A stretch of 64,000 bases of DNA from NCBI GenBank assembly GCA_027334715.1, contig DAHWUG010000001.1, positions 15,324 through 79,323 on the forward strand, in the 5' to 3' direction. Every line of letters begins with the position of its first letter. Within the stretch, counting starts at the first letter, position 1. Source of the DNA: Nanobdellota archaeon (lineage in GTDB: Archaea; Nanobdellota; Nanobdellia; Pacearchaeales; GW2011-AR1). The notes below the pieces were generated by a model. That model did not search any database. It had not been told where the DNA came from and saw only the letters and a program-made list of their open reading frames with translations. A program made the position numbers and the translations under genes. Shown one piece after another: positions 7,866 to 60,797 of the stretch.

Positions 7866-7866
7866 A

Positions 7867-8571: not shown

Positions 8572-8624
8572 AGATTTATTAATTGTTTTTAATTATAGAT
8601 ATCATTGATAAAAAGTGGTGAAAA

Positions 8625-14899: not shown

Positions 14900-15745
14900 A
14901 TGATAGAAATAATCTTCCTTTTTATACTGGGTCTTTTTTGGATTATTTTTGCAACTGTTCAGGATGTAAGAACAAAGGAAATAGCAAACTGGCTTAATTT
15001 TTCTCTTATAATCTTTGTTCTTGGATTCAGGTTCTTTTATTCCCTTTTTTCTGCAGGCAATTTCAGCTTTTTTTATCAGGGCCTTATAGGGCTTGTAATC
15101 TTCTCTGTTCTGGGAAATTTGTTTTATTACGGAAGAATGTTTGCAGGAGGAGATGCAAAACTTCTTATTGCCCTTGGTCCCCTAATCCCCCTTTCTGATG
15201 TTTTTTCAGTAAACTTTGGAAATTTTGTCATGTTCCTTCTTGTCTTCCTTTTTGCAGGAGCTCTTTATAGCATAACTGTCAGCGTGAGCCTTGGCATAAA
15301 AAACAGAAAGAAATTTGGAAAAGAGTTTAAGAATCAATTCAAAGAAAATAGAAAAATAATTATTTCTTTTTTAGTTCTTAGCATAATACTTATCATTTTA
15401 AGCTATTTAGACGGATTATTTTTGTACCTGGGAATACTGACTTTTATCCTGCCTTATCTTTACATTTATGCTAAAAGTGTCGACGAAATTTCAATGATAA
15501 AGAATGTTTCAGTTTCTGCGCTTAAAGAGGGGGACTGGCTTTATCATAATATTAAAATTGGCTCCAAAACAATAAAGGCAACATGGGATGGATTGAACAT
15601 GAGAGAAATAAATTTGCTCAGAAAAAAACGCAAGAATGGGAGAGTCAGGATCAGGGCAGGAGTTTTTTTCACGCCTGTTTTCTTCATAAGCTACCTTGTC
15701 TTCTTTTATTTTTGGTATATTGGATTAAGGTATTCTTTTTGGTAG
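14900..15745 (+). CDS. A24-family prepilin/prearchaellin peptidase (PibD/FlaK-like)
   Basis: 281 aa polytopic; TVQDVRTKEI and GGDAKLLIALG catalytic Asp motifs. Confidence 0.75.
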   Translation: MIEIIFLFILGLFWIIFATVQDVRTKEIANWLNFSLIIFVLGFRFFYSLFSAGNFSFFYQGLIGLVIFSVLGNLFYYGRMFAGGDAKLLIALGPLIPLSDVFSVNFGNFVMFLLVFLFAGALYSITVSVSLGIKNRKKFGKEFKNQFKENRKIIISFLVLSIILIILSYLDGLFLYLGILTFILPYLYIYAKSVDEISMIKNVSVSALKEGDWLYHNIKIGSKTIKATWDGLNMREINLLRKKRKNGRVRIRAGVFFTPVFFISYLVFFYFWYIGLRYSFW

Positions 15746-18074: not shown

Positions 18075-19097
18075 TTGGTGGTTATGGCCACAAAATCAGG
18101 AGAAACTGATATAATAAAAGATGCTGTTTCTGGGGAGAATAAAGAGGCCAAGCTTACGGATTTACCAGGCGTTGGGCCTGCTGTTGCTGCAAAACTTGAA
18201 TCTGCAGGCATTTATGACCTAATGTCAATAGCTGTAATGACTCCTACAGATCTTTCAGAGATTTCCGGAGTAAGCCCCGCTGTTGCCCGTAAAATCATCC
18301 AGGCTGCAAGAAAAATGCTTGACTTAGGATTTGTTGAAGGGACAGAATATGCAAAAAAAAGGGAGAATATAAGCTATATAAGTACAGGAAGCAAAAGCTT
18401 TGATGAACTTTTAGGAGGAAGAGGAATTGAATCAAGAGCAATAACAGAGGCATTTGGTGCTTTTGGCTCAGGAAAGACCCAGGTTGGATCAACTATCAGC
18501 GTCAATGTTCAATTGCCTGTTGAAAATGGAGGAGCAAACGGAAAATGCGTGTTCATAGATACAGAAGGAACATTCAGGCCTTCAAGAATAAAGCAGATTG
18601 CGGAAAAAAGAGGATTGAATCCCGAACAAGTTTTAAAGAACATTTTTGTTGCACGTGCATTTAATTCAGACCATCAGATTCTTTTATTGGACAAAATCTC
18701 AGAAATGATAAAGGCAGGAGAGCCAATAAAACTGCTTATTGTAGACTCTTTGACAGCCCATTTTCGCGCTGAATTTACAGGAAGAGGACAACTAGCAGAC
18801 AGGCAGCAGAAACTTAACAGATACATTCACAATTTGATGAAGCTTGCAGAGACTTACAATCTTGCAGTTTATGTAACAAACCAGGTCATGGCAAATCCCG
18901 CACAAATGTTTGGAGATCCAACAACCGCTATCGGAGGGCATATTGTGGGCCATGCTTCAACTTACCGGGTTTATCTGAGAAGAGGAAAAAAAGATTCAAG
19001 GGTTGCAAAACTTATTGATTCACCAAATCTTCCCGACAATGAATGCATTTTCTTTGTGAGCGATGCAGGTATTGTTGACGGGAAAACAGAAGAATAA
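18075..19097 (+). CDS. radA: RadA recombinase
   Basis: N-terminal HhH ([15 protein letters not shown]), Walker [10 protein letters not shown]; the likely true start is the ATG at 18084 (MATKSG). Confidence 0.9.
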
Positions 19098-33544: not shown

Positions 33545-33644
33545 AGCCTGTGGAGGGAGTTGAACCCTCGACCCCCGGTTAATTCGGAACTTTGTTTTTC
33601 AAAATTCATACAAAACCGATGCTCTGCCACTGAGCTACACAGGC
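33545..33644 (-). tRNA. tRNA-Thr (anticodon UGU) with an intron of about 28 nt
   Basis: acceptor GCCTGTG/CACAGGC, D arm GCTC-AGTGGCA-GAGC, loop TTTGTA then intron then A-ACCGG, T loop TTCAACT. Confidence 0.6.
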
Positions 33645-35577: not shown

Positions 35578-35668
35578 ATTTATTAGCCTGATTTGAGTTT
35601 TTTATTTTTATTTGATGTTTTCCTCCTATTCTAACAAAATTTATATACGTAATTTGCATGTTTTTTAT

Positions 35669-40500: not shown

Positions 40501-43500
40501 CTCCTTCTGTAATAGGAAGCTTGTCAAGCAGTTTGAATGGAGTTTTTCCAGATGGAATACCTACTGGAAACGGAAATCAAAAAATTAACATTAATGATAT
40601 AACAAAACAAATAAATTCAAACACTGCAACGCTTTCACAAATGGAGCAGCTGCAGCTAAATATAGGATTGCTGAATTCAAATGACCAAACTGTTGCATCA
40701 ATTGCAAAGAATCAGGTACAGACAATACTTACCCAGATTAACAGCAACTATCAGGCAACTGCACAGCAGACAGCTGCTAATCAAGCATCACAAAATGATA
40801 TTGATAATGCACATGCAATTGTTTTGGCAGGACCAAATGCCAAAGAGCTGATATACTATGGTTCTACAGCCAAAGATGGAAATAAATTTGGAATTGCAGC
40901 AGGCACACCTGTTGCAGTAATTGTATTTCAAAACCAGCAATATACTCTTGAATTAACTCCTGTAGCAGGAAGCGGGAATACCTATGCAATAAAAAATGTT
41001 TATGATGACAGCACAGGAAATAATTTAGACCATGAAAATGCAATTTATGCAGAAATAATAAAAACAATTTCTGACTTTAAAGCTTACACTACAGACTCTT
41101 ACAAAAATCAGTATCTTAACCCAACTCTTCAATATTATGAAACAGGGCAGTATGCAGGATTGCCTGCAATTGTTCCATTTGATCTGCAAAATGGCTGGTA
41201 TGCTGTTATAAAATCAAATCTTCCAATTTTAGGAGGGCTGACTTCTTATGATGCATCTGGAAGAGTTTCTGCCTTTTATGTGTGCAATGTTGGCCCAAAT
41301 GGGAGGGAAGAAGACATGGGAGGGGATGACATATGCGGACAATTTGTTCCAGGAACAAATCAGCCACCTGTCTTTACAGGGCTTGATTCTTCACAATCAT
41401 TAGAATTAATGAATAAAGCTACAGATGCAATTAAGCAAGCATCTTCTATTAAACAAAAAACAGGAATTGTACTTATTAATGGGCAAAAAATCCCTATTGG
41501 GCAACCATCAACAGGCACGCCTGTAATACAATGCGAGGATTTCATGTCTCCCAGCGATTGCAATATCTTATTCAATGTATGTGATCCTTTTGTATGCCCT
41601 TCAAGCAGATGCAATCTCGGGGGAGCTTACCCTGTTCAGGATGTTATCCAGTCCGGAATTATAGGAAGCCTTGCACTTTGTTATCCAAATTTTCCGCAGG
41701 TAAAAATACCAATATGCATTTCAGGGGTAAATGCAGGATTGCAGGGTTATATCAGCGTTCTTAAATCATACCAGCAGTGTCTGCAAACAAGCCTTAATAC
41801 AGGGCAGCAGGTTGGTATTTGTAGTGAAGTAAATAGCATTTACCAATGCCAGTTTTTCTGGAAGCAGGGAATACCTATAATAAATTATGCCCTTCCAAAA
41901 ATAGCTGGAAGCGTTTTAGGACAGAATTCTGGAACAGGCGGAGGGGAGTATTTAGCAGGCACAGATGCTGTTACAAATGCACAAAAATCAATTGATTATT
42001 TTAGCCAGTTTTATGCTGCAAATTCGTACAAAGCATTCCAGGAAAGGTCAACAGAGGGTGTAGGAGATGCTGTCTGCAAAAACTTTATCTCATTGACAAC
42101 GCCAAATGGAGGAGACTTATTTAATACATTAATAACTCCCGATTCACCTGTGCAATTTTACGGGCAGTTTGATGAAGCTCCTTACACAACTGCAACAAAT
42201 CCCCCAACGTCTCAGTATAATGTATTTTACCACATTTATGCGGGAACAGATTTCCCAGCTTATTATCAAGTTTATCTGAAAGGCTCTCAGAGCTCATTTT
42301 ACCAGGATACATCTGTAAGCAGGGTTGTTGCAACAGGTGTTGTTCCTATAGGACAGTTTACAACAAACACGAGTGTTTTCACAGCCCCATCTGGATATCA
42401 GCAATTATGCATTGTTGTCAACGGACAGGAGCAATGCGGATTCAAACAGGTAACAACTGAATTTGGAGTAAATTACCTGCAGCAGCAGTATTTATCTTCA
42501 CAGGCAAAACAGACAAACATAACTTCTGAGGCAAATTGTGTTTCTGGAACTCCAAGCGTTTACAATTTATTGAATCCAAATGTGCAAGCAGGTGTTACAA
42601 ATACAATAAATCCTGCAATTTACAATCAGGGAATAATAAGAATATGCTCTACAAATAGCCCAGGTCAGGGAACAGATGCAAACTGGAATACTCAAAATGC
42701 ACGATGGCAAAAAGTTGGCTATTGTGATACACCAAATATTGGGTGTTGGCTTGATACACAAAGCGTCACTAATGTTATAAAAGACACAAACATTGCAAAT
42801 TCAACTTTGCGGGCAACAAGCTCACAATTTGTCCAGCAATTGCAATCACAAAATGGATTCTTTGATGACCCCGGGTTTGCTTCATACATATCTTCCTTAA
42901 ATACATTGAAAGATCAAAAACAAAATCTTCAGATAATAAGCTCAATAACACAAAATCTCTCAAAAGCTTCTCTAAGCAATCAGAAAGCAGAGCTTTATTT
43001 AATAAGAGGAAATGCATATACTTCTGTTGCAATCCAGGGATTTGATGCTGCTTCAGCTGGTTCAAAATCCTTGTGTGTTACATGTCTTCAGGCAGGAAAT
43101 GATTGGTGCGGAAGTTCTTCATCAGCACAATGTGTTCCTTCTGGAACATGCAAAATAAGTGATACAATAAAAGCTGCTTATGGTTATTCTGGAATAAGCC
43201 TTTCTAATGCAACAGACAGATGCTCTGTTTTCACCAATGGAATAAAAACATCATCAGGCACTGCAGCAAACGGAGGTTCATGCACTGTAAACTCTGATTG
43301 CCAGTCAAACTATTGCGATACTGCTAATGGTATTTGCACTGATTCTTCAACAATCATTGGTTCTACAGGAAATAAAAATCCAACTGGTGTAATAAATACA
43401 CAAACGCAACAAATTTTTGGAGCTAGTTATCCTATTTTTGAGTTTCACACTGCCAGAATTTATGATATTATAACTTCTTCAGATTTATTATATACATTCT

Positions 43501-44675
43501 ACCAAAATAATTGGTATTGGTGCATAATGTCTAGTGGTTGTCCAATTACTTCTGGAACACCTATACCGGACAACACTTACTGGAAACTTGCCGGAAATCC
43601 AGGAACTTCTGTATCATTAAGTGATAATAATCTTAATTTCTTAACATCTCTTGGAACTGTTCATACTTATTCAGGCGGATTAGCATTATTAATACAAAGA
43701 ACAATTACAAATCAGGAAGGAGGTGGACTTAAACCATTTGGGTTTACAATATTAAGCTCTGATGATAAATTGTCCACAAGTAATGTTGACTATACCCCTG
43801 ATGGAATTTTTACAATTCATACTCCTAATAAATATGATTTTTATCTTATTCATGCTCAAAGCACATGGCAGTGGAATACTTATTCTGGGCAGCCACTTGA
43901 TTCTTGGCCTTATGTTACATCTACTTCATCTAATGGACAAAATCCAACTACTGCTGATTTAAGTTTAATACAAAGTTTAGTGGGGCTAAATGGACTTAGT
44001 GGAGCTCAAATAATCTTTGGGGGCAGTGCAATTTCATCTTCAAATTCAGGAACAGGAAATGCAATAGGCACATGTTCCAGCCAGACAAGCTGCCAGCAAT
44101 TATTGGGAAATGAAATAATAAGATTGGCACAGCAAGTGAAACAGGAGAATAAAAATATTGTTGATTCAAATATTCAAGCACAGACAGGAGCAAAATCATT
44201 TGAATGCCTTGCATTACAAATTGCCATGGTTGAAAGCACTATCCAACAATGTAACCCTCTCCAGCAGAATAACAATCCGTTATATTGTGAAGGAACTCCT
44301 GATGAAGTATATGCTAACACAAATAATGGGGAAAGTAGTTTTGGAATTATGCAAATAAATACAGCTGGTCAGTATAGTCATTGTGGAGACTCATGGAAAG
44401 ATGGGACCTCATTGTCTTCTGATTTAACCCAGTGCAAAATTCAGCTTTCAAATCTTGATACAGATATAAAAGAAGGATTAAACATTTTAGTTAGTGGGTC
44501 TAATGGCGGTCCAAAAACATTTAGCTGTCAAGGAGCACAAGATCAAACATACAGCGGGTGGACATATGCAATAAGAAATTACAATGGCTGGGGATGTCAG
44601 AATCCAGGTTATGTAGACAAAGTTATTAATGACAAACAATTAGTTGCTAACCTTTTCCCCTCTGTTTGCGGTTGA
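37518..44675 (+). CDS. giant secreted protein (2385 aa) with C-terminal family-1 lytic transglycosylase (SLT) domain
   Basis: N-terminal signal/TM; S/T/N/Q-rich repetitive beta regions; C-terminus carries AMVES (catalytic Glu-Ser), GIMQI and AIRNYNGWG motifs of the SLT fold plus many Cys. Confidence 0.8.
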   Translation: MKKEKMQKKGILTSKKFNTATIIGLSLFLTLFFISIISAQGSYIRSAPAYTYGYQAGSFFGLQNYPQVDSNMCNNRQDFILQVDPLGCTPSVVTSDLLEQQNVAVFCPIVATQLNPLISVSAINNMVLANPPGSSFSNNIAGVNYFPSQAALGQYNPSISSPYLGNIGYATIILRQQPNESAMPEFVQGNLTAQISYNIKNAWGVGSASYFLPQLSDTDFNKNINAYSFWNGKGFIRLDSADNTKAVISVYSGVSGAAGSSTAKTKVATFNLKTGETSSDIYLPGFALCMGGLKVHLQDLENPDTTAKLIVDSSVTDLRKGDTFLDGRCTVKSISKQGINQNVQILCNEDQQESNFLLGINPKVNLSINGTTKTYSVGDYLFDYLNPKDQQHYSVYLGFIGNNGKANLDSDIYIRTLLIPTKNGGTETKLTNDEISYVAGYDEAVKGSDLKQGISGQIVDGGKAVFATISQILRGGLSGKYLSYLQYGSSDTNFPTDGQTKLRIVGYAGVYDTDLSQLPKPTQDSYNSAMSDYQTIINNYAGETYPSGSSVTEGQQALQQAIDLANQFGQKRTVLQLCQQYSQSYGADSGIPPICSDNALLSSTSVSEQSVIINGQSHVISFYGITQPTFDQYGVIISVQNPDGTYRDPADLQKGDVLYLTQETDYAYTTGSIFNGNRITVYYRYDNTAGWQWSVDKSVWMPVRTVIISGGKNPGELTSSEQISMINQLNKNGQGSKTFDDGKQLLTDSGASPQTNEQYIQLAHLTADTATFNTYLGTGTFTSALPQQKIKLGAVDTFGSQYTFALQKINLQQVAKVSIEPDINYAHSNASFSFKIGIEKRNIQLTPNETKQRIKDLNNTINKWQSLQNSLNSVVKVGKAACIITEGTLLVKNFIANLGGAGAARQLAMRSPGGWDDQCQKAVTSNSQINGKGPFTTVENCLQANSPAVDASVNAYDAALKAQNDNIQTLSQGLPTTTVAGEKVTDNAQLFDKISPSVIGSLSSSLNGVFPDGIPTGNGNQKININDITKQINSNTATLSQMEQLQLNIGLLNSNDQTVASIAKNQVQTILTQINSNYQATAQQTAANQASQNDIDNAHAIVLAGPNAKELIYYGSTAKDGNKFGIAAGTPVAVIVFQNQQYTLELTPVAGSGNTYAIKNVYDDSTGNNLDHENAIYAEIIKTISDFKAYTTDSYKNQYLNPTLQYYETGQYAGLPAIVPFDLQNGWYAVIKSNLPILGGLTSYDASGRVSAFYVCNVGPNGREEDMGGDDICGQFVPGTNQPPVFTGLDSSQSLELMNKATDAIKQASSIKQKTGIVLINGQKIPIGQPSTGTPVIQCEDFMSPSDCNILFNVCDPFVCPSSRCNLGGAYPVQDVIQSGIIGSLALCYPNFPQVKIPICISGVNAGLQGYISVLKSYQQCLQTSLNTGQQVGICSEVNSIYQCQFFWKQGIPIINYALPKIAGSVLGQNSGTGGGEYLAGTDAVTNAQKSIDYFSQFYAANSYKAFQERSTEGVGDAVCKNFISLTTPNGGDLFNTLITPDSPVQFYGQFDEAPYTTATNPPTSQYNVFYHIYAGTDFPAYYQVYLKGSQSSFYQDTSVSRVVATGVVPIGQFTTNTSVFTAPSGYQQLCIVVNGQEQCGFKQVTTEFGVNYLQQQYLSSQAKQTNITSEANCVSGTPSVYNLLNPNVQAGVTNTINPAIYNQGIIRICSTNSPGQGTDANWNTQNARWQKVGYCDTPNIGCWLDTQSVTNVIKDTNIANSTLRATSSQFVQQLQSQNGFFDDPGFASYISSLNTLKDQKQNLQIISSITQNLSKASLSNQKAELYLIRGNAYTSVAIQGFDAASAGSKSLCVTCLQAGNDWCGSSSSAQCVPSGTCKISDTIKAAYGYSGISLSNATDRCSVFTNGIKTSSGTAANGGSCTVNSDCQSNYCDTANGICTDSSTIIGSTGNKNPTGVINTQTQQIFGASYPIFEFHTARIYDIITSSDLLYTFYQNNWYWCIMSSGCPITSGTPIPDNTYWKLAGNPGTSVSLSDNNLNFLTSLGTVHTYSGGLALLIQRTITNQEGGGLKPFGFTILSSDDKLSTSNVDYTPDGIFTIHTPNKYDFYLIHAQSTWQWNTYSGQPLDSWPYVTSTSSNGQNPTTADLSLIQSLVGLNGLSGAQIIFGGSAISSSNSGTGNAIGTCSSQTSCQQLLGNEIIRLAQQVKQENKNIVDSNIQAQTGAKSFECLALQIAMVESTIQQCNPLQQNNNPLYCEGTPDEVYANTNNGESSFGIMQINTAGQYSHCGDSWKDGTSLSSDLTQCKIQLSNLDTDIKEGLNILVSGSNGGPKTFSCQGAQDQTYSGWTYAIRNYNGWGCQNPGYVDKVINDKQLVANLFPSVCG

Positions 44676-44711
44676 TTGATTATGATTCTAAAGCTTTTTA
44701 TAGAGATAAAA

Positions 44712-44795
44712 TGCGGGAGATAGGATTCGAACCTATGCAAGCACTAAGCTAATGGGTCCTAGGCCCACTCCGTTTGACCACTCCGGCACTCCCGC
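44712..44795 (-). tRNA. tRNA-Leu (type II, anticodon UAG), unusual C33
   Basis: acceptor GCGGGAG/CTCCCGC, long variable arm, anticodon loop CCTAGGA, T loop TTCGAAT. Confidence 0.65.
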
Positions 44796-45449
44796 ATTAA
44801 ATAAGTTTGCATATTGTGGTTTAAAAGTTATTCCATAATACTCTTTTCTATACTTTTTATGAACCCATTTATCTTTTAAAATAGGAACTTTAAGGCTATT
44901 AAAAATTGAATCTAAATCCTTCCACATTTGTTTGCTTGCAGTTGATAACCCATAACCCCTCCTTCTTTTTCCCCCCTCTGTCGCTAATAATCCCTTAAGG
45001 AAGGCTATTTTAATCTCTTTGTTTGAGTTTAAAATACATTTTGGAATTTTTACTACATCACTCTTCTTCCCTGAAGGAATCCCAAAAACATTTTTTAATA
45101 AATTATAAATTGCTTTACTATCAATGCACATGTGATATGTTTGCTGTTTACCTTCTCTTAATTTTACTTTTGTGACATTAAATTTTCTGTTAAATAGACT
45201 AACACATAATTTTGATATATGCTTTATCAGATTCCAATTTGTTAATTCTATTGTTGTTTGAGTCTTACTTTTTTTTAGATGACCATCCCCTATAATACAC
45301 CCGACAAAAAATGCTAACTCATCATTGATATACAAAGGAATTTTTGTTAGTTTTGAAGGACCGTATTTTGCTTTAACAAAGATTTTTTTATTATTTCTTG
45401 AAATTACATTTAATCCATTTTGAGAATTAATTACATCTTTTTTGTACAT
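44733..45449 (-). CDS. LAGLIDADG homing endonuclease, free-standing; ORF tail reads into tRNA-Leu
   Basis: Two LAGLIDADG motifs LAFFVGCIIGDGHL and IAFLKGLLATEGG; the last ~21 codons overlap the tRNA 5' half. Confidence 0.65.
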   Translation of the reverse strand: MYKKDVINSQNGLNVISRNNKKIFVKAKYGPSKLTKIPLYINDELAFFVGCIIGDGHLKKSKTQTTIELTNWNLIKHISKLCVSLFNRKFNVTKVKLREGKQQTYHMCIDSKAIYNLLKNVFGIPSGKKSDVVKIPKCILNSNKEIKIAFLKGLLATEGGKRRRGYGLSTASKQMWKDLDSIFNSLKVPILKDKWVHKKYRKEYYGITFKPQYANLFNAGVPEWSNGVGLGPISLVLA

Positions 45450-48390: not shown

Positions 48391-48513
48391 GCCCCTGTAG
48401 CTCAGCCTGGATAGAGCGCCTGCCTTCTAAGCGAAGGAAGGAATTCTTCCCATTTCTCTTTTAGAGGAAAAGAAGAAAGCAGGAGGTCGCAAGTTCAAAT
48501 CTTGTCGGGGGCG
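48391..48513 (+). tRNA. tRNA-Arg (anticodon UCU) with an intron of about 48 nt
   Basis: acceptor GCCCCTG/CGGGGGC, D arm GCTC/GAGC, anticodon stem CCTGC, loop CTTCTA then intron then GCAGG, T loop TTCAAAT. Confidence 0.7.
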
Positions 48514-49217: not shown

Positions 49218-50909
49218 TTACTTTTTTAATAAATCTTTCAAATCCACCTTTTCCTCTATTTTTTTGCCCGTCTTTTTTTTGTGCCTCTCTCTTCTCGTTA
49301 TTGCATAATAAATAGCTGCACTTAGGGCAATGCTTAAGATAATTATAACTATTATATATATTTTTTCTTGCTGAGAAACAGCAGATGCCGCAACATTAAA
49401 TAACACACTTGAGCTAGCGATTTTTCCACTATAACTTACGCGGACATAAAGCACATACTGCCCATCAGGAGTTCCCCGCGGTATCTTAATTACTTGAGTA
49501 AAGCTTGCTTGTGTTTCAACTGCAACAGTACTACTGGAATTAGTTATTACCTTTCCATTGCTATCCTCTATTATGCAATTCATATTTGCATCAATTCTTC
49601 CTGTCTCTCCAAGGTTATACAAGGCAATATCTGCAATTATGTCATTTCCAGGACTTATTGTTTTATAACCATTTGGAATTGTTGCTTGCACATCGAAGAG
49701 ACTTTGCTTTGATTCAATATCTACTGCAACAATAACTTCCTTGCTGATTACTCCGGCAGTTATGATAATATTCCCTAAATAGATATTTGGAACAGTACTC
49801 TCTGTTGCTAAGAAATCAAAGCTTATGTTTTTTGATTCTCCCGGATTTAATGAAAATGAAGAATTGTCAATCTTTATGAAATCTACAAGTTTATCTTGTC
49901 CTAAATTAATTGTTAGGGGAGATGTCCCTGTATTTTTTATAACCAAACTTGCTTCTTTTATTTCTCCTTGATTAAGCTTTATACTAAGATGATCTGAAGA
50001 TAATGTAAATGATAAAGGAGCATATCCCCCTCCGCCTCCTCCGCCTGATGAAGTAATTGTTGGTGTTCCTCCAGAAGGAGTTTCTTCTGCGCTGTAAGTG
50101 CTGAATCCAGTGACATTAAAAATTAAAGTTCCGTCTAAGTAGCTTTGCTTTGTGCAAATTGTTGCAGGGCAGATAGAACCATCTCTTAATATTACAGGAT
50201 TTGAAAATGTTAAATTGTAAAGATAAAGGGTTGCAGAAGTATTAAAATTAGGAAGTGCAGTAGAATTTACACTTATACTATCAGAAGATATTGATGTATA
50301 GTTATCCAAACTTACGGCATTATCACTTAAATTTATACCTCTTGTAATATTAATTGTCTGATTGAATGCTATTTTTCCATAGTTTGTATTTTCCAGAACA
50401 ACATTGCTTAAATTCTGAAGATCCTTATAAGATAACTTGTTGAAATTTGTTGAACTCCCTCTTTCTGACCCCGAATAATTGCTGTAATAGACTATGAATT
50501 TACTTGAATTAACAGTGAAAGTCACACTGACTATGGAATTTCCGTTGGTGTTATTTGCATATAAATAGAGAGTGTGGATTCCTTGTGTCACGTTAAAAGT
50601 CGTATTGCTGTTTATTGTTGTGTTTGTTCCATTATCAATTCTGTACAAAACATAATCAGCGCTTAATGCTGTAAAATTTAAAGGAAGATCATTACCCGCA
50701 AAATAAGTGCTGTTTTCAGGATATGTTAATAGCAAAGTTGGTGGGCCTGTTACAATTATTGATAAAGAAGCTGTTGCACTTGTTGCATTTCCTGTTATAA
50801 TACTGCCTGTAACTGTTTGCCCTGTTATAGGGCCGGAATTTACTGTTCCTATGAAAAAAATAAGGAATGCTGCCGAGACTAATAATAAAAATCCTTCCTC
50901 TTTTTTCAT
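49218..50909 (-). CDS. N-glycosylated cell-surface protein with signal peptide and C-terminal TM anchor
   Basis: 563 aa; dense NxT/S sequons, GGGGGG linker, C-terminal TM followed by an RRERHKKK tail. Confidence 0.6.
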   Translation of the reverse strand: MKKEEGFLLLVSAAFLIFFIGTVNSGPITGQTVTGSIITGNATSATASLSIIVTGPPTLLLTYPENSTYFAGNDLPLNFTALSADYVLYRIDNGTNTTINSNTTFNVTQGIHTLYLYANNTNGNSIVSVTFTVNSSKFIVYYSNYSGSERGSSTNFNKLSYKDLQNLSNVVLENTNYGKIAFNQTINITRGINLSDNAVSLDNYTSISSDSISVNSTALPNFNTSATLYLYNLTFSNPVILRDGSICPATICTKQSYLDGTLIFNVTGFSTYSAEETPSGGTPTITSSGGGGGGGYAPLSFTLSSDHLSIKLNQGEIKEASLVIKNTGTSPLTINLGQDKLVDFIKIDNSSFSLNPGESKNISFDFLATESTVPNIYLGNIIITAGVISKEVIVAVDIESKQSLFDVQATIPNGYKTISPGNDIIADIALYNLGETGRIDANMNCIIEDSNGKVITNSSSTVAVETQASFTQVIKIPRGTPDGQYVLYVRVSYSGKIASSSVLFNVAASAVSQQEKIYIIVIIILSIALSAAIYYAITRRERHKKKTGKKIEEKVDLKDLLKK

Positions 50910-50942
50910 GCATTAGTATAGAAAGATTATTATTTAAAGTTT

Positions 50943-51491
50943 TTATCTTTTTTTCTTTCTTCTTGCAATCAAAAGCAAAATACCTACTACAATGATAAGC
51001 CCGATAATCACATACAAGAGCGTGCTATTTGTGTTTGACGACTTATATAGCAAACTCTCTGAATTATTGACAACTTCAACAGGAATTGTTGTTGAAAATG
51101 CGCTTGCTACATGAAGCATGCCACCCTGTCCTGATGAGATTTCATTGAACAAAACATTTATATCATATGTTTTTCCAATTTGTGCATTTTTTGGGAGCTG
51201 TATGTAAATATTAACTGGGACATTATCACTTCCCAAGGGCACGAAATACTGGGAGCTGTTTTCTGTAATTGTTGCTATATTGCCTTCGCTTGAAATTGAG
51301 GCGTTGACAGTTATGTTTTCTCCTCCAACCATATTCTGCAAAGCTAGTGCTATTGTTGTTGATTCACCTGGAGCCAGCTTTAAAGGATTCTGGGGCCAGT
51401 AAGGTGATGCAACCCCCGATGCAGAAATAAATGAAATTACAACTGCTAAAATTCCCAAGGATATGAGGGTTGTGATTTCTTTTTTTTCCAT
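50943..51491 (-). CDS. small cell-surface protein with signal peptide and C-terminal TM anchor
   Basis: 182 aa; C-terminal IIGLIIVVGILLLIARRKKKR. Confidence 0.55.
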   Translation of the reverse strand: MEKKEITTLISLGILAVVISFISASGVASPYWPQNPLKLAPGESTTIALALQNMVGGENITVNASISSEGNIATITENSSQYFVPLGSDNVPVNIYIQLPKNAQIGKTYDINVLFNEISSGQGGMLHVASAFSTTIPVEVVNNSESLLYKSSNTNSTLLYVIIGLIIVVGILLLIARRKKKR

Positions 51492-51529
51492 ATAATCTTT
51501 GTTATATCAATGTTTATCTATTTTTATAA

Positions 51530-52441
51530 TTATATCATCATGACTGTCCATGAACCATATGCCGCTGATGAATATGATTGTGAGCTTATACTTTGTGGGA
51601 CTCCTTTAAGGCAGAAGTACAAGGGCTCCTGTCCAGATGTTCCGTTATTGTAATTTAAGGTATTGTTTCCGGAGTAAATCCAAGCAGTTGTAACGTTAAT
51701 GGATGTTGCATTTAACATTGATGTTCCACTGCATCCTGCTGTAACATTGTCCACACTTAAGTTATTTGCGTAGATATACTGTGTTTGCGTTGTTTCCCCG
51801 CGAAGATCATATGCTGTTATATTAATGTTTGATATCTGCTTGTTTCCTGTATTATTTATAATAATAGGATTATTGCTTGAGCCAATATTTGAACTTGCCA
51901 GTGTTATTGCTGACCATGTTAATGATGTTGGCGACATTGTCATAGATGTTAATGTATTATATGTGAATGTTGTAGTTGAATTCTCAACATAATTTCCTAG
52001 CGTATCCTGTATTGACACATTTATTGTCCATGAACCTGGCTTGTCAAAATACCACATATATATTGTACAGGTGTAGTTCTTGTTATTTCCAACTGCCGCA
52101 TAAGGAAGACAGCTCGTATTGCTTCTTGTTGCCTGTCCTGCCATCTGGAAGCTTGCTTTTGCTGTTGTATCATTCAGATAGCTGGGTCCATTTCCATCGC
52201 TAGCTGTGAAATTGAATTGTATTGCCTTTGTTCCAGATTCTGTAGGATTTGCTGCAGAAATTGCATCAACATACGGAATTGTTGGTGGATTGCTTTGCAC
52301 TGTGATATTCAGAGCTGTTGTCCCGCTTGTTGCTTTACCAGTTACCTTACCCCATAAATCAGAAAAAATATTTGCTGATGCAAATGATATAATAAACACT
52401 GCAAAAATTGTCAAAATAAAAAATAAATACCCTCTCTTCAT
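51530..52441 (-). CDS. cell-surface protein consisting of one copy of a ~260-aa module duplicated in the next gene
   Basis: PPTIPYVDAISAANPTESGTKAIQFNFTA...CSGTSMLNATS block about 75-80 percent identical to residues ~935-1215 of the 1411-aa neighbour. Confidence 0.6.
   Translation of the reverse strand: MKRGYLFFILTIFAVFIISFASANIFSDLWGKVTGKATSGTTALNITVQSNPPTIPYVDAISAANPTESGTKAIQFNFTASDGNGPSYLNDTTAKASFQMAGQATRSNTSCLPYAAVGNNKNYTCTIYMWYFDKPGSWTINVSIQDTLGNYVENSTTTFTYNTLTSMTMSPTSLTWSAITLASSNIGSSNNPIIINNTGNKQISNINITAYDLRGETTQTQYIYANNLSVDNVTAGCSGTSMLNATSINVTTAWIYSGNNTLNYNNGTSGQEPLYFCLKGVPQSISSQSYSSAAYGSWTVMMI
52027..52150. repeat. near-identical (122 of 124 nt) segment shared with 53561..53684
   Basis: direct comparison of the two paralogous surface-protein genes; further identical blocks at 51705-51757 versus 53240-53292 and about 52200-52288 versus 53740-53822. 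Confidence 0.8.
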
Positions 52442-52481
52442 ATTACTATAAATACCACACTTAGCTTTTTAAACATTATTC

Positions 52482-55400
52482 TTATTCATTGATTTTGTTT
52501 ATTTTATTTTTTGCCCTTGAATAAACCGTCCATATATTCCTTTGGTCCCTTTCCAGCATCTGGGCTATCTCGCTGAATTTGAAACCCCTATTTTTTAAGT
52601 ATAATATTAATGATTCAAGGATTGTGCTTTCTCTTTTTGCAAAAACAGATAATGGCACTGACAATTTAGTTTTTGCATCAAACCTTTCTTCTTTTTTCCC
52701 TTTTGCCTTTTTATAAGATGTCCAGACTGTTCTTTCATCCCTTAAAATTGCCTTTGCAATTTCACTATAACTCATTTTCAAATTTTCTTTCATGTACTTT
52801 ACAATAGATTCCAGTGCTCCAAGCTCTTTTGAGAAAATAGAGACTGGGATACTTATGCTTTCACCAATCATTTCTGATATCTCTTTTTTGCTTATCCCAT
52901 AATTGTCTGCCACCCTTTCAATAACTTTTTCAACAACTTCATTACTTTTTAGGTCGGAATCTTCCTTTATTCTTTCTATTATGAGGTCAAGCGCCCCGAG
53001 GAGCTTGTCTTCTCCCTTCTTTTTCTGTTTCTTTTTTCTTCTAGTTGCGGGGATTACTGCAACAAGGAGAACCTTTACAATCCATGAGCCATAGGCAGAG
53101 GATGAATATGACTGTGTAATAAGATTTTGCGGAACTCCACGAAGGCATATATACAGCTCTTCCTGTCCAGATGTTGCATTGTTATAATTCATGGTGTTGT
53201 TTCCCCTCTGAAGAACCGCATTTGTCACATTTACTGACGTTGCATTTAACATTGATGTTCCACTGCATCCTGCTGTAACATTGTCCACACTGAAATTGTC
53301 TGCATAAATGAAATAATTCCCGTTTTGCTCACCTACTAGGTTATATGCTGTTACATTAAGGCTTAATGCTTCTGCATTACCTGTATTGTTTACAACAAGG
53401 GGATTATTTGTTGCACCCACATTTGCGCTTGTAAGATTTAATACTCCCCAGCTTAATGAAGAAGGAGAAACAACCATCGAAGTCAGCTGATTGTAAGTGA
53501 ATGTTGTTGAACTGTTTTCTCCATACGCTTGTGAATTGTCAAGGATAGTTGCATTTATCGTCCATGAACCTGGCTTGTCAAAATACCACATATATATTGT
53601 ACAGGTGTAGTTCTTGTTGTTTCCAACTGCCGCATAAGGAAGACAGCTCGTATTGCTTCTTGTTGTCTGTCCTGCCATCTGGAAGTATGCTGCAGCTGAC
53701 GAATCATTAAGATTTGACGCACCATTCAAATCCTGAGCTGTGAAATTGAATTGTATTGCCTTTGTTCCAGATTCTGTAGGATTTGCTGCAGAAATTGCAT
53801 CAACATACGGAATTGTTGGTGGTGAATTTGCAGAAGTTGTTTGGTATGTGAAGATGTCTGTTGCATTCAAATTGCCTGCTGTGTCATTAGTATAAAATCT
53901 CCATCTTATTGTTGAGCCGGAAGTGAAGTTTACACTTTTTGTAACATTACTCCAATTTGAGACTCCTGTCATTCCTATAAAACTATCGTTGACAAATGTC
54001 CCCGTGCCATTGTCAAAACTAAAAATATACCCACTTAATTCATTATTATCTGACCATAACAAGCTGTGTTGTACAGCTTCTCCTGCTTTTGTTGAGTTTG
54101 TCTGATTATTGCTCCATGTTGGCGCTGTTGAATCCATACCAACTACATAACTGTTGTTTAGTCCTGTATTTCCCAGTGTATCATTTGCATATGCATTTAT
54201 TGTCTGGTTTCCATCTGTAATTCCTGTCAAAGCATATGTTCCATTGCACCATCCAGAAGAAATAGCAACTGTCTGGTTTGCATTTCCTGCAACATTTACA
54301 GAACAGTCGTCAGGACCGACACCTGAATCTGTCACTGATACATTAAATATGAGGCTTTGTGTACTCCTATAGAATGTAGCATTTGTATAAACTGGCAATG
54401 TTATTACGGGTGAGGTTGTATCTATTGTGAGAGTCCTATTTGCTGCTGCAAAAGCGCAGTTTCCAGATGGATCACATGACTGATAATTCCATACATATAC
54501 TCCATCAGATATACTTGAAATAGTAAAATTAGTCTGGCTGTTATTTATTGGAGAAGAATTTGTTTGGGTTGCTGCCCATGTTCCGGATGTGTTTGTATAA
54601 ATTGAAACATTTGAAACCTCAAAATTATCATTTGCTATTCCGCTGAAGGTTATAGAAGATGAGGATGAATTCTGGCTGTTTACAGGGGAACTTAATGTGA
54701 CTATAGGAAAAATTGTGTCAACTAAAAATGTGTTGTTTAAACTAGAGAAATTGCAGGCACCATTTGAATCACATGACCTGTAATTCCATCTATAAACTCC
54801 ATTTGGAATTCCGGTTATTGTAAAAACCGTTGGTGTATTATTTATAGGCGAAGAGTTAGTCTGGTTTGCCGTCCAGCTTCCTGAAATATTCGTGAATACA
54901 GAAACATTTGACAGAGGGTATTGATAAGAAACTGCAGTTCCATTGAAAGTTATGTTAGAAGAGCTTGAGTTATATGAATTAACAGGTAAATTTAGTAATA
55001 TTTTGATGTTTGAAGGGGGAGCTGAAACAATATACTGTACTGCGCCGCTTATCCTTGCTGAGCTGCCATCTGCAGATTCTGCTGGTTCGTAGCACCTTAC
55101 ATTATACGTCCCTGTTTGCGTGAAAACAAGATTATGTGCTGGCTGGGAGGTATTTGTAGGAGCATTTACACTCGACAAAGATCCTGTGTCTGGATTAGAG
55201 CCATTTACTGTTATTGCTGTGCTCGAAGACATATTTGCCCATCCAGAAGATGACGTGTTGAACTGCAGGTATGTATTCACACTTCCGCTTCCTGTTGCTC
55301 CTGAGCCAGCCTGCTCAAAGATACAATAGGCAGTAACTGCATCATTTGTATTTAGCGCTCCTGTTGCGTTTGGTGCATAATAAACATTGTCCACAACAAA

Positions 55401-56717
55401 TATTCCGGGCTTTCCATCATGTATGAAATCATAAGAAACAGAATTGCCCACAGATTTCAAGTCAAAAACATCTTGACTTCCTTTTAAATCAGGAAGCGAG
55501 ATGTAATAGACCCCATAAGTCACATTATCAATTCTGCCAACAAGAGTATTTGAACTTTCTTCATAAACTAATATGGACGCGCTTTCATTATCCCTCACAA
55601 AGATGTCAATGACATTCTTATTTGTAAGATTCGCTGCAAAAAATGCCCTTACATAATCATTTTTTGGTATGGTAAAAGTTATATTGTCTGTTTGATTTAC
55701 ATAACTATAAATACTTCTTATGAAACTTCTATTTGCGCTGAGCCATTGAGCATCTGTTATTATGATTACATAAGTCTGGTTGCTCAAGTGGGGCGCAATC
55801 CATGAGACATAATCATAAATACCATCGTAATTTGTGTCTTTCACAGAAAGAGGTGTTATATAACTGCCATTTTCTTGCCAATAAATCTTTACCTGCGAGG
55901 GATTTGTTATATGCAAAGACTCTGAAAGGTTTGTGAAAACAAGGACATTTGTATAATGGACAATGTCTGGTCCAGAAATCCTGACGATTTTCCCAGACTG
56001 GGTATTTTGTTCTGTTGCTGTTGGTGCAGGAGTCTCGTAACTAATTTCATAATCTGTTGAATTTGTTTTATTAATGTCCATCTGAATCTGTTGAATTGGC
56101 TGCTGAACCACGAAGCCAGTTATTCTTCCAATACTACTGAGAAAACTGCCAGAAGCTGATGTTTTTGAAACAGAAAAAGCATTTCCTGAACTTATGTTTT
56201 CTGCTTCAGAAGGCAAAATCAATTTTATGCTAGAAGGCCTTTCCAATGAAACTTTTTTTATCCACTTGACTGGCTGGTTAAGAACTGCCTGCTGCTGTAT
56301 TGTTGTGACTATTGCGTTTACTCCAGGCTCTGTCGCGATTTCCTGTCCATTCTGGACGGCAAAACCTGTTGTCTGGAGATTTATCTGATTTAAGAAAAAT
56401 GCTGCAAGAATGATTGCAATGAAGACAGCAGAAATGACAGGCGCACGGATTTTATTTATACTCTTTTTATGTTTTTCAATCAGCTGTTTGCACTCTTTTA
56501 TGTAATTGTCATAGTACTCTATCCACTGTTGAATATTTCTTCCATCCCTGCTTAAGTGGAGCGTCTCGATATAAAATTTGAATGATATTTTTCCAGATAT
56601 ATAAGCATGATAAAGTCTTTTAAGATAGCTTTCAAAATACCTTTTTCTTTCTTCAGCAGCCCCTATATTTTTTCTTAACTCTCCTATGAAGGCTTTTGCT
56701 GATTTGACCTTCCCCAT
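52482..56717 (-). CDS. giant (1411 aa) two-TM surface protein with a cytoplasmic C-terminal tail carrying two HTH-like repeats
   Basis: cytoplasmic N-terminus, TM, about 1100-aa glycosylated ectodomain, second TM (IVKVLLVAVIP), then tail with SYSEIAKAILRDERTVWTSYKKAK and KFSEIAQMLERDQRNIWTVYSRAK repeats. Confidence 0.7.
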   Translation of the reverse strand: MGKVKSAKAFIGELRKNIGAAEERKRYFESYLKRLYHAYISGKISFKFYIETLHLSRDGRNIQQWIEYYDNYIKECKQLIEKHKKSINKIRAPVISAVFIAIILAAFFLNQINLQTTGFAVQNGQEIATEPGVNAIVTTIQQQAVLNQPVKWIKKVSLERPSSIKLILPSEAENISSGNAFSVSKTSASGSFLSSIGRITGFVVQQPIQQIQMDINKTNSTDYEISYETPAPTATEQNTQSGKIVRISGPDIVHYTNVLVFTNLSESLHITNPSQVKIYWQENGSYITPLSVKDTNYDGIYDYVSWIAPHLSNQTYVIIITDAQWLSANRSFIRSIYSYVNQTDNITFTIPKNDYVRAFFAANLTNKNVIDIFVRDNESASILVYEESSNTLVGRIDNVTYGVYYISLPDLKGSQDVFDLKSVGNSVSYDFIHDGKPGIFVVDNVYYAPNATGALNTNDAVTAYCIFEQAGSGATGSGSVNTYLQFNTSSSGWANMSSSTAITVNGSNPDTGSLSSVNAPTNTSQPAHNLVFTQTGTYNVRCYEPAESADGSSARISGAVQYIVSAPPSNIKILLNLPVNSYNSSSSNITFNGTAVSYQYPLSNVSVFTNISGSWTANQTNSSPINNTPTVFTITGIPNGVYRWNYRSCDSNGACNFSSLNNTFLVDTIFPIVTLSSPVNSQNSSSSSITFSGIANDNFEVSNVSIYTNTSGTWAATQTNSSPINNSQTNFTISSISDGVYVWNYQSCDPSGNCAFAAANRTLTIDTTSPVITLPVYTNATFYRSTQSLIFNVSVTDSGVGPDDCSVNVAGNANQTVAISSGWCNGTYALTGITDGNQTINAYANDTLGNTGLNNSYVVGMDSTAPTWSNNQTNSTKAGEAVQHSLLWSDNNELSGYIFSFDNGTGTFVNDSFIGMTGVSNWSNVTKSVNFTSGSTIRWRFYTNDTAGNLNATDIFTYQTTSANSPPTIPYVDAISAANPTESGTKAIQFNFTAQDLNGASNLNDSSAAAYFQMAGQTTRSNTSCLPYAAVGNNKNYTCTIYMWYFDKPGSWTINATILDNSQAYGENSSTTFTYNQLTSMVVSPSSLSWGVLNLTSANVGATNNPLVVNNTGNAEALSLNVTAYNLVGEQNGNYFIYADNFSVDNVTAGCSGTSMLNATSVNVTNAVLQRGNNTMNYNNATSGQEELYICLRGVPQNLITQSYSSSAYGSWIVKVLLVAVIPATRRKKKQKKKGEDKLLGALDLIIERIKEDSDLKSNEVVEKVIERVADNYGISKKEISEMIGESISIPVSIFSKELGALESIVKYMKENLKMSYSEIAKAILRDERTVWTSYKKAKGKKEERFDAKTKLSVPLSVFAKRESTILESLILYLKNRGFKFSEIAQMLERDQRNIWTVYSRAKNKINKINE

Positions 56718-56878
56718 TACTTACTATTTATGTATATATCCTTATAAATTTATGTAATATAATAAAAATACTTATTATTTATGTACTAAGAAAATAATCT
56801 TTTACTTCGAATTCATGATCTCCGTAATATATCTTTAATTTCAAAAAAGTTTTTAAAAGAAATATTCCTTAATGATCA

Positions 56879-58546
56879 ATGAAAAGAGAGGTTAGCATTT
56901 CAATATTTGCGGTTATTCTCCTTATTGTGTCTGTTTTCATGATTTCTTATCTTGGAGTTAAGCCGACAGGCTTTGCAATTTTTCAACAGCAGACCCAAAC
57001 TGACTTCAATTCTGGAAACTATACAAATACAATCTACAACGGCAGCGCTGTTGTTCTGGCTGCAAACCAGACAACAGGAGTATATACATCCGGGATTTTT
57101 AATGCAGTAAACATTTCAACATTGAACAATCTAACTTGGCAAGGCAGCGGAAATTTGACATTTGAAGTAAAGAACTGCTCTGCTCCAGACTGTTCTGGCG
57201 GGAGTTTCACATCTGTTAATTTGAGTAATATAAACATAACAGGACAATATTTCCAGTATCAAGTTTTTCTCACGGCAAATTCAAGCAGCCAAAGCTTGAG
57301 TAGTGTTGCATTAGATTATACTCAAATATCTAATTTGACAAATCAAACCAACCAAACAAATCAAACCAACCAAACAAATCAAATTATTCCGACATCTGCA
57401 GTTGTTTATAATCCTGCAGGAATCTTCACCTCAAATTCAGTACCTATAAATTTCACAGCAAATGGAACTGCAGATATTACCTGCTGGTATAATGTCATGA
57501 ATTCAACAGGAATGAGTATTATTACAGGGAATACAACACTTTCATCATGCGTAAATACAACACTAAGTGGCTTATCCAATGGGAATTATTTATTCAATTT
57601 ATACTTAAATGGCTCTTCTGGATTTTATTCAACATCTTCTACATTTACAATTTCTTTACCATCCCAGAATAATAATCAAAGCACAACAAATCAGACACTA
57701 ATACCACCACAACAAAACCAGACAGTAAACTCAACGCCAACGCAACCAACTATACAGCAGACCGTCGGCGTTTCAATATCAGATATTCCGCAACAGAACT
57801 TAAATGAGGATGGAACAGGAAAAGTTGCAGTTTCTGTGCAGAACACAGGTACAACTGATTTAACAGGATGTGTATTGGGTAGTGATAGTCCTGATTGGGC
57901 AAGCGTTTCAACAGGGAGCCAAGGAATAAAAGGAGGAGCAACTGCTTCTTATGATGTTTCCATAAATGTTCCTTTAAGGTCAGATGTTGGCGCACATAAT
58001 ATAGGATTGACTTTGACATGCTCTGAAGCAACAGCAACAAAGACGCTTACAATAAATGTCATCAAAACACAACTAGGGTTTAATTTAACAAGCATAAGCA
58101 GAACAAGCCCTAGGACAGTAAAACTGATATATTCACTCGCTGAACTTGCAAATCAGACACAGAATGTTACAATAAATTTTGACTTGCTTGACTCGAGCAA
58201 TACAATAGTTTCAAACTTGTCCCAGAGCATAAACTTAAGCGCTGGAACAATAAAATATTTCACAGCAAACCTTCCGATAAACAGCACATCTCCATTGTTC
58301 AAGAACATGTCGCAAAATGTTTCATTGACCTTGAAGACAGACTATAACTCACCAATTTACTCTGGAGAACTTTTAAAGACAATTGTGCTTGGTGCACCCA
58401 TATCAGGAGGATTCTTGAGTGGATTTGCAATACTCGGTGAAGGCTCTGGCAGTATTATCATAGCAGTAATTGTAGTTTTAGTAATTGTTATTGTGTTCTT
58501 TGTTGCCAGAAAAGTCATAAAACCACGAAAGTCACGAAAGAAATAA
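56879..58546 (+). CDS. N-glycosylated cell-surface protein with NQT repeat linker and C-terminal TM anchor
   Basis: 555 aa; signal peptide, TNQTNQTNQTNQTNQ tract, C-terminal TM followed by RKVIKPRKSRKK. Confidence 0.6.
   Translation: MKREVSISIFAVILLIVSVFMISYLGVKPTGFAIFQQQTQTDFNSGNYTNTIYNGSAVVLAANQTTGVYTSGIFNAVNISTLNNLTWQGSGNLTFEVKNCSAPDCSGGSFTSVNLSNINITGQYFQYQVFLTANSSSQSLSSVALDYTQISNLTNQTNQTNQTNQTNQIIPTSAVVYNPAGIFTSNSVPINFTANGTADITCWYNVMNSTGMSIITGNTTLSSCVNTTLSGLSNGNYLFNLYLNGSSGFYSTSSTFTISLPSQNNNQSTTNQTLIPPQQNQTVNSTPTQPTIQQTVGVSISDIPQQNLNEDGTGKVAVSVQNTGTTDLTGCVLGSDSPDWASVSTGSQGIKGGATASYDVSINVPLRSDVGAHNIGLTLTCSEATATKTLTINVIKTQLGFNLTSISRTSPRTVKLIYSLAELANQTQNVTINFDLLDSSNTIVSNLSQSINLSAGTIKYFTANLPINSTSPLFKNMSQNVSLTLKTDYNSPIYSGELLKTIVLGAPISGGFLSGFAILGEGSGSIIIAVIVVLVIVIVFFVARKVIKPRKSRKK
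57341..57385 (+). repeat. 18-nt tandem repeat (AATCAAACCAACCAAACA, about 2.5 copies) encoding (NQT)n
   Basis: read directly in the sequence. Confidence 0.7.
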
Positions 58547-60589: not shown

Positions 60590-60732
60590 TGGCTCTGAGG
60601 AGAATTTAACTCCCGACCTCGGCCTTTCTCAATTTCCTACTTGCTCATATGCTAAAAACAGGAAGTTTTCGTGAGTGTATTTGAACAAGCTCAAATCCAT
60701 GAGAGCCGCGCTCTAACACTGAGCTACAGAGC
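60590..60732 (-). tRNA. tRNA with CAU anticodon (Met, or possibly Ile2) carrying an intron of about 70 nt
   Basis: acceptor GGCTCTG/CAGAGCC, D arm GCTC/GAGC, anticodon stem CGGCT, CTCAT then intron then GGCCG, T arm GGGAG-TTAAATT-CTCCT; exact splice site uncertain. Confidence 0.65.
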
Positions 60733-60797
60733 CGAGAATAAAAAAGATAATTGATTTAAAAGGTTTGAGGTCAAACAGGTTAAATAAATAGAAATCT

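Follow-up and report, generated by a model that had tools for sequence, protein, structure and literature searches.

The closest known case to the locus described here is the pair mtrA-1 and mtrA-2 in the mtr operon of Methanococcales and Methanomicrobiales, for which long-lasting gene conversion has been described (Wang et al. 2015, PMC4632066). Our locus lies in a 64-kb stretch of a Nanobdellota archaeon (contig DAHWUG010000001.1, positions 15,324 to 79,323; hereafter the window, by which we mean this whole stretch) and consists of two adjacent genes, L, which encodes a giant membrane protein, and S, directly downstream on the same strand, which encodes a small secreted protein (Table 1). 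We propose that a module present in both proteins undergoes recurrent segmental gene conversion between S and L, resulting in long-lasting concerted evolution limited to this one domain, and we estimate the probability of this interpretation at about 0.9. Like L and S, the mtrA-1/mtrA-2 pair consists of two ancient paralogues within one archaeal operon, of which one carries an extra, distinct membrane or fusion part; there too, the shared domain alone has been homogenised by recurrent conversion over a long time, and the paralogues of the same genome cluster in trees. In contrast to MtrA, a core metabolic enzyme, L and S are uncharacterised surface proteins of DPANN archaea that are rich in glycan sequons. 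Their module evolves fast between species and shows many very recent tracts of 50–420 nt, and the domain that undergoes conversion forms part of a giant protein, 850–2400 aa long.

A survey of concerted evolution that is long-lasting and recurrent (LRCE), as far as its outline goes, reports 26 prokaryotic genes, most of them central components of important pathways, and calls the category rare (Wang & Chen 2018, PMC6053082). Measured against the definition given in that outline, L and S belong to this category, with paralogues closer to each other than to their orthologues, recurrence across lineages and membership of the same complex or pathway; they differ from the surveyed genes in that they come from metagenome-assembled genomes (MAGs) of uncultivated DPANN archaea. 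Gene conversion is also known between the subunit paralogues of the archaeal chaperonin (thermosome) and between tufA and tufB in Salmonella. As in L and S, segmental, non-reciprocal exchange between two expressed paralogues leads there to mosaic identity and concerted evolution. However, those are highly conserved housekeeping genes at dispersed loci, whereas L and S are adjacent in an operon, encode a giant membrane protein and a small secreted one, and exchange a single domain. The process itself is therefore already known, and the S–L pair is a new example of it rather than a new mechanism. In the literature on gene conversion in DPANN archaea and on Pacearchaeota surface proteins, we found no earlier description of this gene cassette or of conversion in DPANN surface genes.

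Mosaic identity within the shared module

The homology between the two genes forms a single ungapped stretch of 771 nt (S aa 47–303 against L aa 961–1217; same strand, offset 1534), recovered by local protein alignment and by DNA self-comparison, with 71% amino-acid identity and a nucleotide identity of 76.6% over 747 nt. The original prediction, made from the sequence alone, had described S as essentially one copy of a module that matches L residues ~935–1215. The homology holds, but the range in L is 961–1217, and the alignment upstream of residue 961 is weak. Alignment and DNA self-comparison of the two regions, in line with the first check proposed at the time, confirmed blocks of identity on a diverged background. 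Of the three blocks named, the one with 122 of 124 identical nucleotides (52027–52150 against 53561–53684) was exact and lies within a full tract of 124 out of 126 (52026–52151), whose two mismatches are located at positions 52085 and 52132 in a base-by-base comparison. The 53-nt block at 51705–51757 is indeed identical throughout, its partner being 53239–53291 and thus displaced by one nucleotide from the predicted position, and the block of about 88 nt, placed at 52200–52288 and 53740–53822, exists but begins at 52202 and 53736 and comprises 87 identical nucleotides. A search for additional copies of the module covered the 64-kb window and returned two only, those in S and L.

Synonymous sites separate the blocks from their surroundings. 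At 173 codons S and L share the same degenerate amino acid; 51 of these differ synonymously, all but two of them outside the blocks, and the longest runs of identical codons comprise 31, 20, 16 and 16 codons. Uniform divergence along the alignment, the outcome named beforehand as incompatible with conversion, was used as the null model of a permutation test and is not what we found (p = 3e-4 for the longest run, p < 1e-5 for the sum of the top three). According to Nei–Gojobori estimates, which we used for all dS and dN values, the three blocks together contain two synonymous differences in 60.7 sites (dS 0.03), compared with a saturated pS of 0.74 and a dN of 0.37 outside them; synonymous and non-synonymous differences are both erased in the tracts. 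The proteins encoded by the blocks are 97.8% identical within the genome, compared with 54–65% to the nearest relatives listed, where they are no better conserved than the non-block columns. Since the block columns are not conserved between genomes, the amino-acid identity of the blocks is a consequence of DNA exchange and not its cause. Non-block segments of S and L in the window genome share 55% of their amino acids, compared with up to 64% between S proteins of different genomes.

Age of the pair and proposed concerted evolution across genomes

The comparative set consisted of 53 loci from a scan of species-representative genomes (Pacearchaeota, Woesearchaeota and Nanoarchaeota). At 27 of these loci, an S-type gene is immediately preceded, on the same strand, by an L-type gene encoding 850–2400 aa, and the order L–S–g182–g563, in which the last two are the genes that follow S in the window, is kept in 37–46 of the 53. 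S orthologues have in common a signal peptide and a leader motif, FSDxWGKITGKATSGTT, which is absent from L. The N-terminal region, the ectodomain and the tail are in turn common to the L orthologues. Because synteny, the S-specific leader and the L-specific flanks are all conserved across loci, we regard L and S, on these comparative sequence grounds, as ancient tandem paralogues that predate the divergence of the species compared.

The S family as a whole comprises proteins of ~300 aa from MAGs of Pacearchaeota, Woesearchaeota and Nanoarchaeota, the best non-self match in a protein search being 61% identical. A profile search yielded 1,736 cluster representatives at 50% identity, and two architectures recur in the family, one of ~300–335 aa and one of 1000–3200 aa with the module near the C-terminus. 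In some distant relatives (loci L045, L047 and L049), the module is located at the extreme C-terminus of a large protein without the membrane stretch or the helix-turn-helix (HTH) tail that follow it in L, and at L047 the place of S, immediately ahead of the g182 homologue, is taken by a 520-aa protein (7172–8735). Such variants could represent alternative architectures, or they could have arisen through recombination between the two repeats.

In most genomes, the identity between the S and L modules of the same genome is higher than the best S–S and L–L identity across genomes. A neighbour-joining tree of 76 modules places S and L of the same genome as sisters in 17 of the 27 pairs, mostly with bootstrap values of 87–100 (99 for the window). 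Within groups of close relatives (L003/L006/L009; L017/L012/L023/L024; L027/L030/L039; L010/L019/L020/L022/L025), an S clade is sister to an L clade, and this nested pattern is the expected outcome of recurrent homogenisation followed by divergence. Quartet-informative sites, classified as orthology-type (O), conversion-type (C) or a third class (X), gave O55/C41/X10 for the close pair L006/L009, alternating in runs, and O69/C24 for L027/L030; in distant quartets, C lies far above O (3/131/4 for the window and L018, in the order O, C, X). The first and last informative sites remain orthology-type, which indicates that the segment competent for conversion is bounded by the limits of homology.

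We detected 46 tracts of at least 10 identical codons in 19 of the 27 genomes, at positions that vary by genome. Exact-identity tracts extend to 422 nt in L018, 329 nt in L004, 107 nt in L017 (single-cell genome AAA011-D5), 98 nt in L008 and 95 nt in L011. Tract coverage is not correlated with conservation between genomes (rho 0.03), and the clustering of identity is significant on at least one of two measures in about 15 of the 27 pairs. A rough polarisation with close relatives identified the tracts of L017 as L-like (14:2 and 11:2 diagnostic sites) and those of L006 and L009 as S-like (11:4 and 10:3), which is suggestive of conversion in both directions. We interpret these patterns as conversion that recurs independently in genomes labelled Pacearchaeota, Woesearchaeota and Nanoarchaeota. 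The segmental and ongoing gene conversion that the original prediction had read from the window is thus supported by dS values of 0–0.08 in the blocks against saturation outside them, by the lack of conservation of the blocks between genomes, by an identical second assembly of the locus (see below), by the tracts in 19 of 27 genomes, and by the tree and quartet signatures.

Based on these data, we propose the following multistep scenario, in which (i) the two module copies, which form direct repeats on one strand at a distance of 1534 bp, would undergo homologous recombination without crossover, copying short segments of tens to a few hundred nucleotides between S and L; (ii) strand exchange would be carried out by RadA, the Rad51-family recombinase encoded in the window and the enzyme needed for homologous gene conversion, on which the process would depend; (iii) crossovers between the repeats, which would delete the membrane stretch and HTH tail of L together with the leader of S, would presumably be removed by selection; (iv) different parts of the module would be hit in different lineages, apparently in both directions, so that the copies evolve in concert while the signal peptide and leader of S and the ectodomain, membrane stretch and HTH tail of L stay orthologous. 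In the window genome, the tracts of 87, 126 and 53 nt, with 0–2 differences each, would be recent, and the rest of the module would have remained unexchanged long enough for synonymous saturation. Homogenisation may be tolerated or favoured, as both copies presumably have the same role, structural or in binding, at the cell surface.

Several points weigh against recurrent conversion as the explanation. No conversion event was directly observed, and the databases contain no close strain variants, the next S homologue being 61% identical. Clustering is not significant in 10 of the 27 genomes. The direction of transfer is only suggestive, because the reference genomes used for polarisation may themselves be converted. 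The window genome taken alone would also allow a recent homogenisation of the whole module followed by the import of diverged segments.

Alternative explanations

Cassette-based antigenic variation likewise involves segmental conversion of genes that encode exposed surface proteins, as in Neisseria (pilE/pilS), Borrelia (vlsE), Anaplasma (msp2) and trypanosomes (VSG), and the original prediction had mentioned surface-antigen variation in passing. Under programmed antigenic or phase variation of the pilE/pilS, vlsE or VSG type, one of the two copies would be expressed and the other would act as a silent donor, with conversion serving to diversify the exposed surface. The proteins are indeed exposed, rich in sequons and fast-evolving (~60% identical between the nearest sampled species), and DPANN archaea are portrayed, at least in parts of one report, as episymbionts with diversifying surface proteins (PMC6142677). 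However, within the 64-kb window L and S possess neither an archive of silent cassettes nor a single expression site. The 64-kb window contains two module copies only, and an expression locus accompanied by several silent, truncated donors is not found in it. Both copies are complete open reading frames (ORFs), S having its own start codon, signal peptide and possible promoter, and throughout the clade they keep their 1:1 arrangement. Homogenisation is what conversion between two copies brings about, as is visible here as the net effect, and combinatorial diversity cannot arise from it; furthermore, two assemblies of the locus are identical. The suggestion of antigenic variation is therefore not supported, and we consider it very unlikely.

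We rate a second scenario just as low, in which a recent duplication, or a recent homogenisation of the full module, was followed by patchy divergence through positive selection or through homologous recombination that brings in alleles of other strains, leaving the blocks as remnants. It would account for non-block segments that are as diverged as orthologues of other species (55% within the genome against up to 64% between S proteins). In contrast, a pS of 0.74 outside the blocks is impossible by divergence in place since a recent duplication, and the pair is ancient and syntenic. No donor-like sequence closer than ~64% identity was found; homologous recombination with DNA diverged by 25–30% is inefficient. 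In addition, quartets of close genomes show orthology-type segments broken up by conversion-type segments.

The sequence originates from a MAG, and repeats can mislead assemblers, so that a chimeric or collapsed contig from a metagenome with related strains has to be considered. In the MAG UBA10194, a contig break falls exactly between a tail-less L (locus L037, 5387–8825) and S (locus L041, 69–1041), whose modules are sisters in the tree; this break fits a repeat that disrupts assembly. However, an independent MEGAHIT contig in the European Nucleotide Archive (ERZ27233560, k141_1336879) is 100% identical to positions 50963–58441 of the window (7479 nt), and the longest exact run between S and L in the window is 87 nt, which is below both the read length and the final k-mer. 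Nineteen independent genomes, one of them from a single cell, show the same pattern; they stem from different studies and different assemblers. Furthermore, a collapse breaks contigs and does not produce in-frame mosaics. In view of the identical second assembly and the recurrence across genomes, we rejected an assembly artefact as scarcely credible.

Equally remote is a constraint at the DNA or RNA level (an overlapping gene, for instance, or an embedded regulatory element or RNA structure), or very strong purifying selection on the protein combined with codon bias. The blocks coincide with identical amino-acid stretches, and an 81-aa ORF on the plus strand (52206–52451) overlaps tract 1, as such a constraint might predict. 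However, block columns are only ~60% identical in other genomes, tract positions vary between genomes without correlation to conservation, about half of the codons for conserved residues outside the blocks differ synonymously, and codon bias cannot explain runs of 31 codons. Nucleotide-level constraint was rejected because the block sequences are not conserved across genomes. The possibility that the copies are the template and variable repeats of a diversity-generating retroelement, an element common in DPANN archaea and suggested by near-identical repeats of ~50–125 nt in a DPANN surface-protein gene, is negligible and was rejected on the mismatch spectrum, which is not adenine-specific (of 189 mismatches, S has A at 69 and L at 38, and all 12 substitution types are present), and on the lack of a reverse-transcriptase match among the 25 ORFs scanned, out of 30 in the window that reach 220 aa or more, both copies being, moreover, in-frame homologous coding modules over 771 nt.

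The surface cassette and other features of the window

Table 1. Coordinates of the genes, module copies, tracts and associated elements in the window.
Feature	Position	Strand	Remarks
Gene S	51530..52441	-	ORF, 303 aa; secreted protein, without membrane anchor at its end
Gene L	52482..56717	-	ORF, 1411 aa
Module copy in S, aa 47–303	51533..52303	-	Ungapped alignment with L aa 961–1217; segment able to undergo conversion
Module copy in L, aa 961–1217	53067..53837	-	Just before the second membrane-spanning stretch
Putative conversion tract 1	S 52202..52288, L 53736..53822	-	87/87 nt; S aa 52–80; dS = 0 over 22 synonymous sites
Putative conversion tract 2	S 52026..52151, L 53560..53685	-	124/126 nt; ~S aa 97–139; dS = 0.078 for aa 96–141
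Putative conversion tract 3	S 51705..51757, L 53239..53291	-	53/53 nt; S aa 229–245; dS = 0
L–S spacer, 40 nt	52442..52481	-	From sequence reading
TATA-like element TTTAAAAA	52466-52473	-	In the L–S spacer, 25–32 nt upstream of the S ATG
L-specific region, aa 1218–1411	52485..53066	-	Hydrophobic stretch, RRKKK, two tandem sigma-70-region-4-type HTH; without homology to S; between the module copies
g182, third cassette gene	50943..51491	-	182 aa; signal peptide and C-terminal anchor; homologue directly downstream of S in 46 loci
g563, fourth cassette gene	49218..50909	-	563 aa; signal peptide and C-terminal anchor; same-order homologue in 37 loci
RadA (Rad51-family recombinase)	18075..19097	+	Pfam Rad51, 313 bits

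S begins with an N-terminal signal peptide (hydrophobic segment at aa 3–27), followed by the conserved leader motif and the 257-aa module. Its AlphaFold2 model (predicted local distance difference test score, pLDDT, 84) shows the signal helix and two tandem beta-sandwich domains (residues 54–161 and 167–302). A search of S against Pfam matched no family, and Foldseek of the model against the Protein Data Bank (PDB) returned generic matches with two immunoglobulin (Ig) domains only, among them Fab light chains, RbmA and the Ig domain of a sialidase; TM-scores were 0.2–0.3. Many S orthologues start with an M-K-R-G motif before the hydrophobic stretch, and genes for a type IV pilus/archaellum-type ATPase (T2SSE; 5583–7865, plus strand) and a prepilin peptidase (Peptidase_A24; 14900–15745, plus strand) are present in the window. 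Given the KRG motif and this peptidase, S might carry a class III (prepilin-type) signal; the SAG/ASA site that follows the hydrophobic stretch is just as consistent with a conventional signal peptidase I site. The TATA-like element TTTAAAAA in the spacer may act as an archaeal TATA box, from which S would be transcribed independently of L as a leaderless mRNA.

L consists of a cytoplasmic N-terminus, a first transmembrane segment, a sequon-rich ectodomain of ~1100 aa, the module, a short hydrophobic stretch, an RRKKK motif and a cytoplasmic tail with a double HTH; its Pfam matches are Big_3_3 and Sigma70_r4_2. The density of NxS/T sequons noted in the original prediction was borne out, with 15 in S against 8.2 ± 2.4 in shuffled sequences (p = 0.006) and 65 in L against 29 ± 4.6 expected. 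In L, all of them lie in the ectodomain (aa 116–1217), and there are none in aa 1–92 and aa 1218–1411. This confinement supports a predicted topology in which the N-terminus is inside, the ectodomain outside and the C-terminus inside. The ectodomain also contains an internal tandem domain repeat of ~99 aa (54468–54614 and 54765–54911; aa 603–651 and 702–750) with 69% nucleotide identity, and a weak match to Big_3_3 (bacterial Ig-like) lies near it.

The L tail alone matches Sigma70_r4_2 (PF08281) with 28.2 bits, above the gathering cut-off of 25.7, and 19 of 20 homologues match it too (best E-value 7e-14); a profile search of the tail against PDB sequences gave nothing significant. It resembles a DNA-binding tail that is tethered to the membrane. 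Homologues that stand alone as proteins of ~170 aa are widespread in DPANN archaea, and at locus L049 the HTH protein is a separate ORF (1023–1517) upstream of a tail-less L. With the HTH protein encoded separately at L049, its functional association with the surface cassette seems to be conserved. ToxR/ToxS and CadC are examples of one-component regulators that are tethered to the membrane and whose small periplasmic partner is encoded downstream. The predicted arrangement of L would resemble them in joining a cytoplasmic HTH to an extracellular region via a membrane segment, with the small exported S encoded directly downstream. In contrast to ToxR and CadC, the HTH of L is C-terminal, of the sigma-70 region 4 type and present in two copies, the ectodomain is huge, and S is a paralogue of the juxtamembrane module.

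The four genes L, S, g182 and g563 span positions 49218–56717 on the minus strand, and every product carries signal or anchor segments; g563 contains 22 sequons against 10.4 expected. As all four products have such segments and the gene order is conserved, they probably form one surface complex.

Elsewhere in the window, a divergently oriented ORF for a 555-aa surface protein (56879–58546) contains 33 sequons against 13.9 expected, four of which lie back to back in an (NQT)x4 repeat (57341–57376, plus strand). Three Rfam tRNA matches of 100–144 nt (33545–33644, 48391–48513 and 60590–60733) were not called by ARAGORN and are probably intron-containing archaeal tRNA genes. A 238-aa LAGLIDADG_3 ORF (44733–45449, minus strand), which may be the remnant of a homing endonuclease, abuts or overlaps a tRNA-Leu gene (44711–44796, minus strand). 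Neither the 2385-aa ORF at 37518–44675 (plus strand) nor the 634-aa ORF directly upstream of it (35612–37516, plus strand) had a Pfam match at E ≤ 1e-5.

In summary, the L–S pair would represent a clean and well-replicated case of domain-limited, long-lasting concerted evolution in Archaea. Phylogenies of the module and orthology calls based on it would be misleading for an abundant family (about 1,700 cluster representatives at 50% identity), and assemblers can break between L and S. We also considered a far-reaching and rather doubtful scenario in which the cassette is a DPANN-specific apparatus for host sensing or adhesion, L is a giant membrane-tethered transcription factor, S pairs with the two-Ig module of L in the manner of Fab chains, and conversion keeps receptor and co-receptor matched during rapid diversification between lineages. 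If this were true, conversion would not be a neutral by-product but a means of matching receptor and co-receptor. With the apparent coupling of an ectodomain to an HTH in L, the cassette is a candidate for how episymbionts may sense or hold their hosts.

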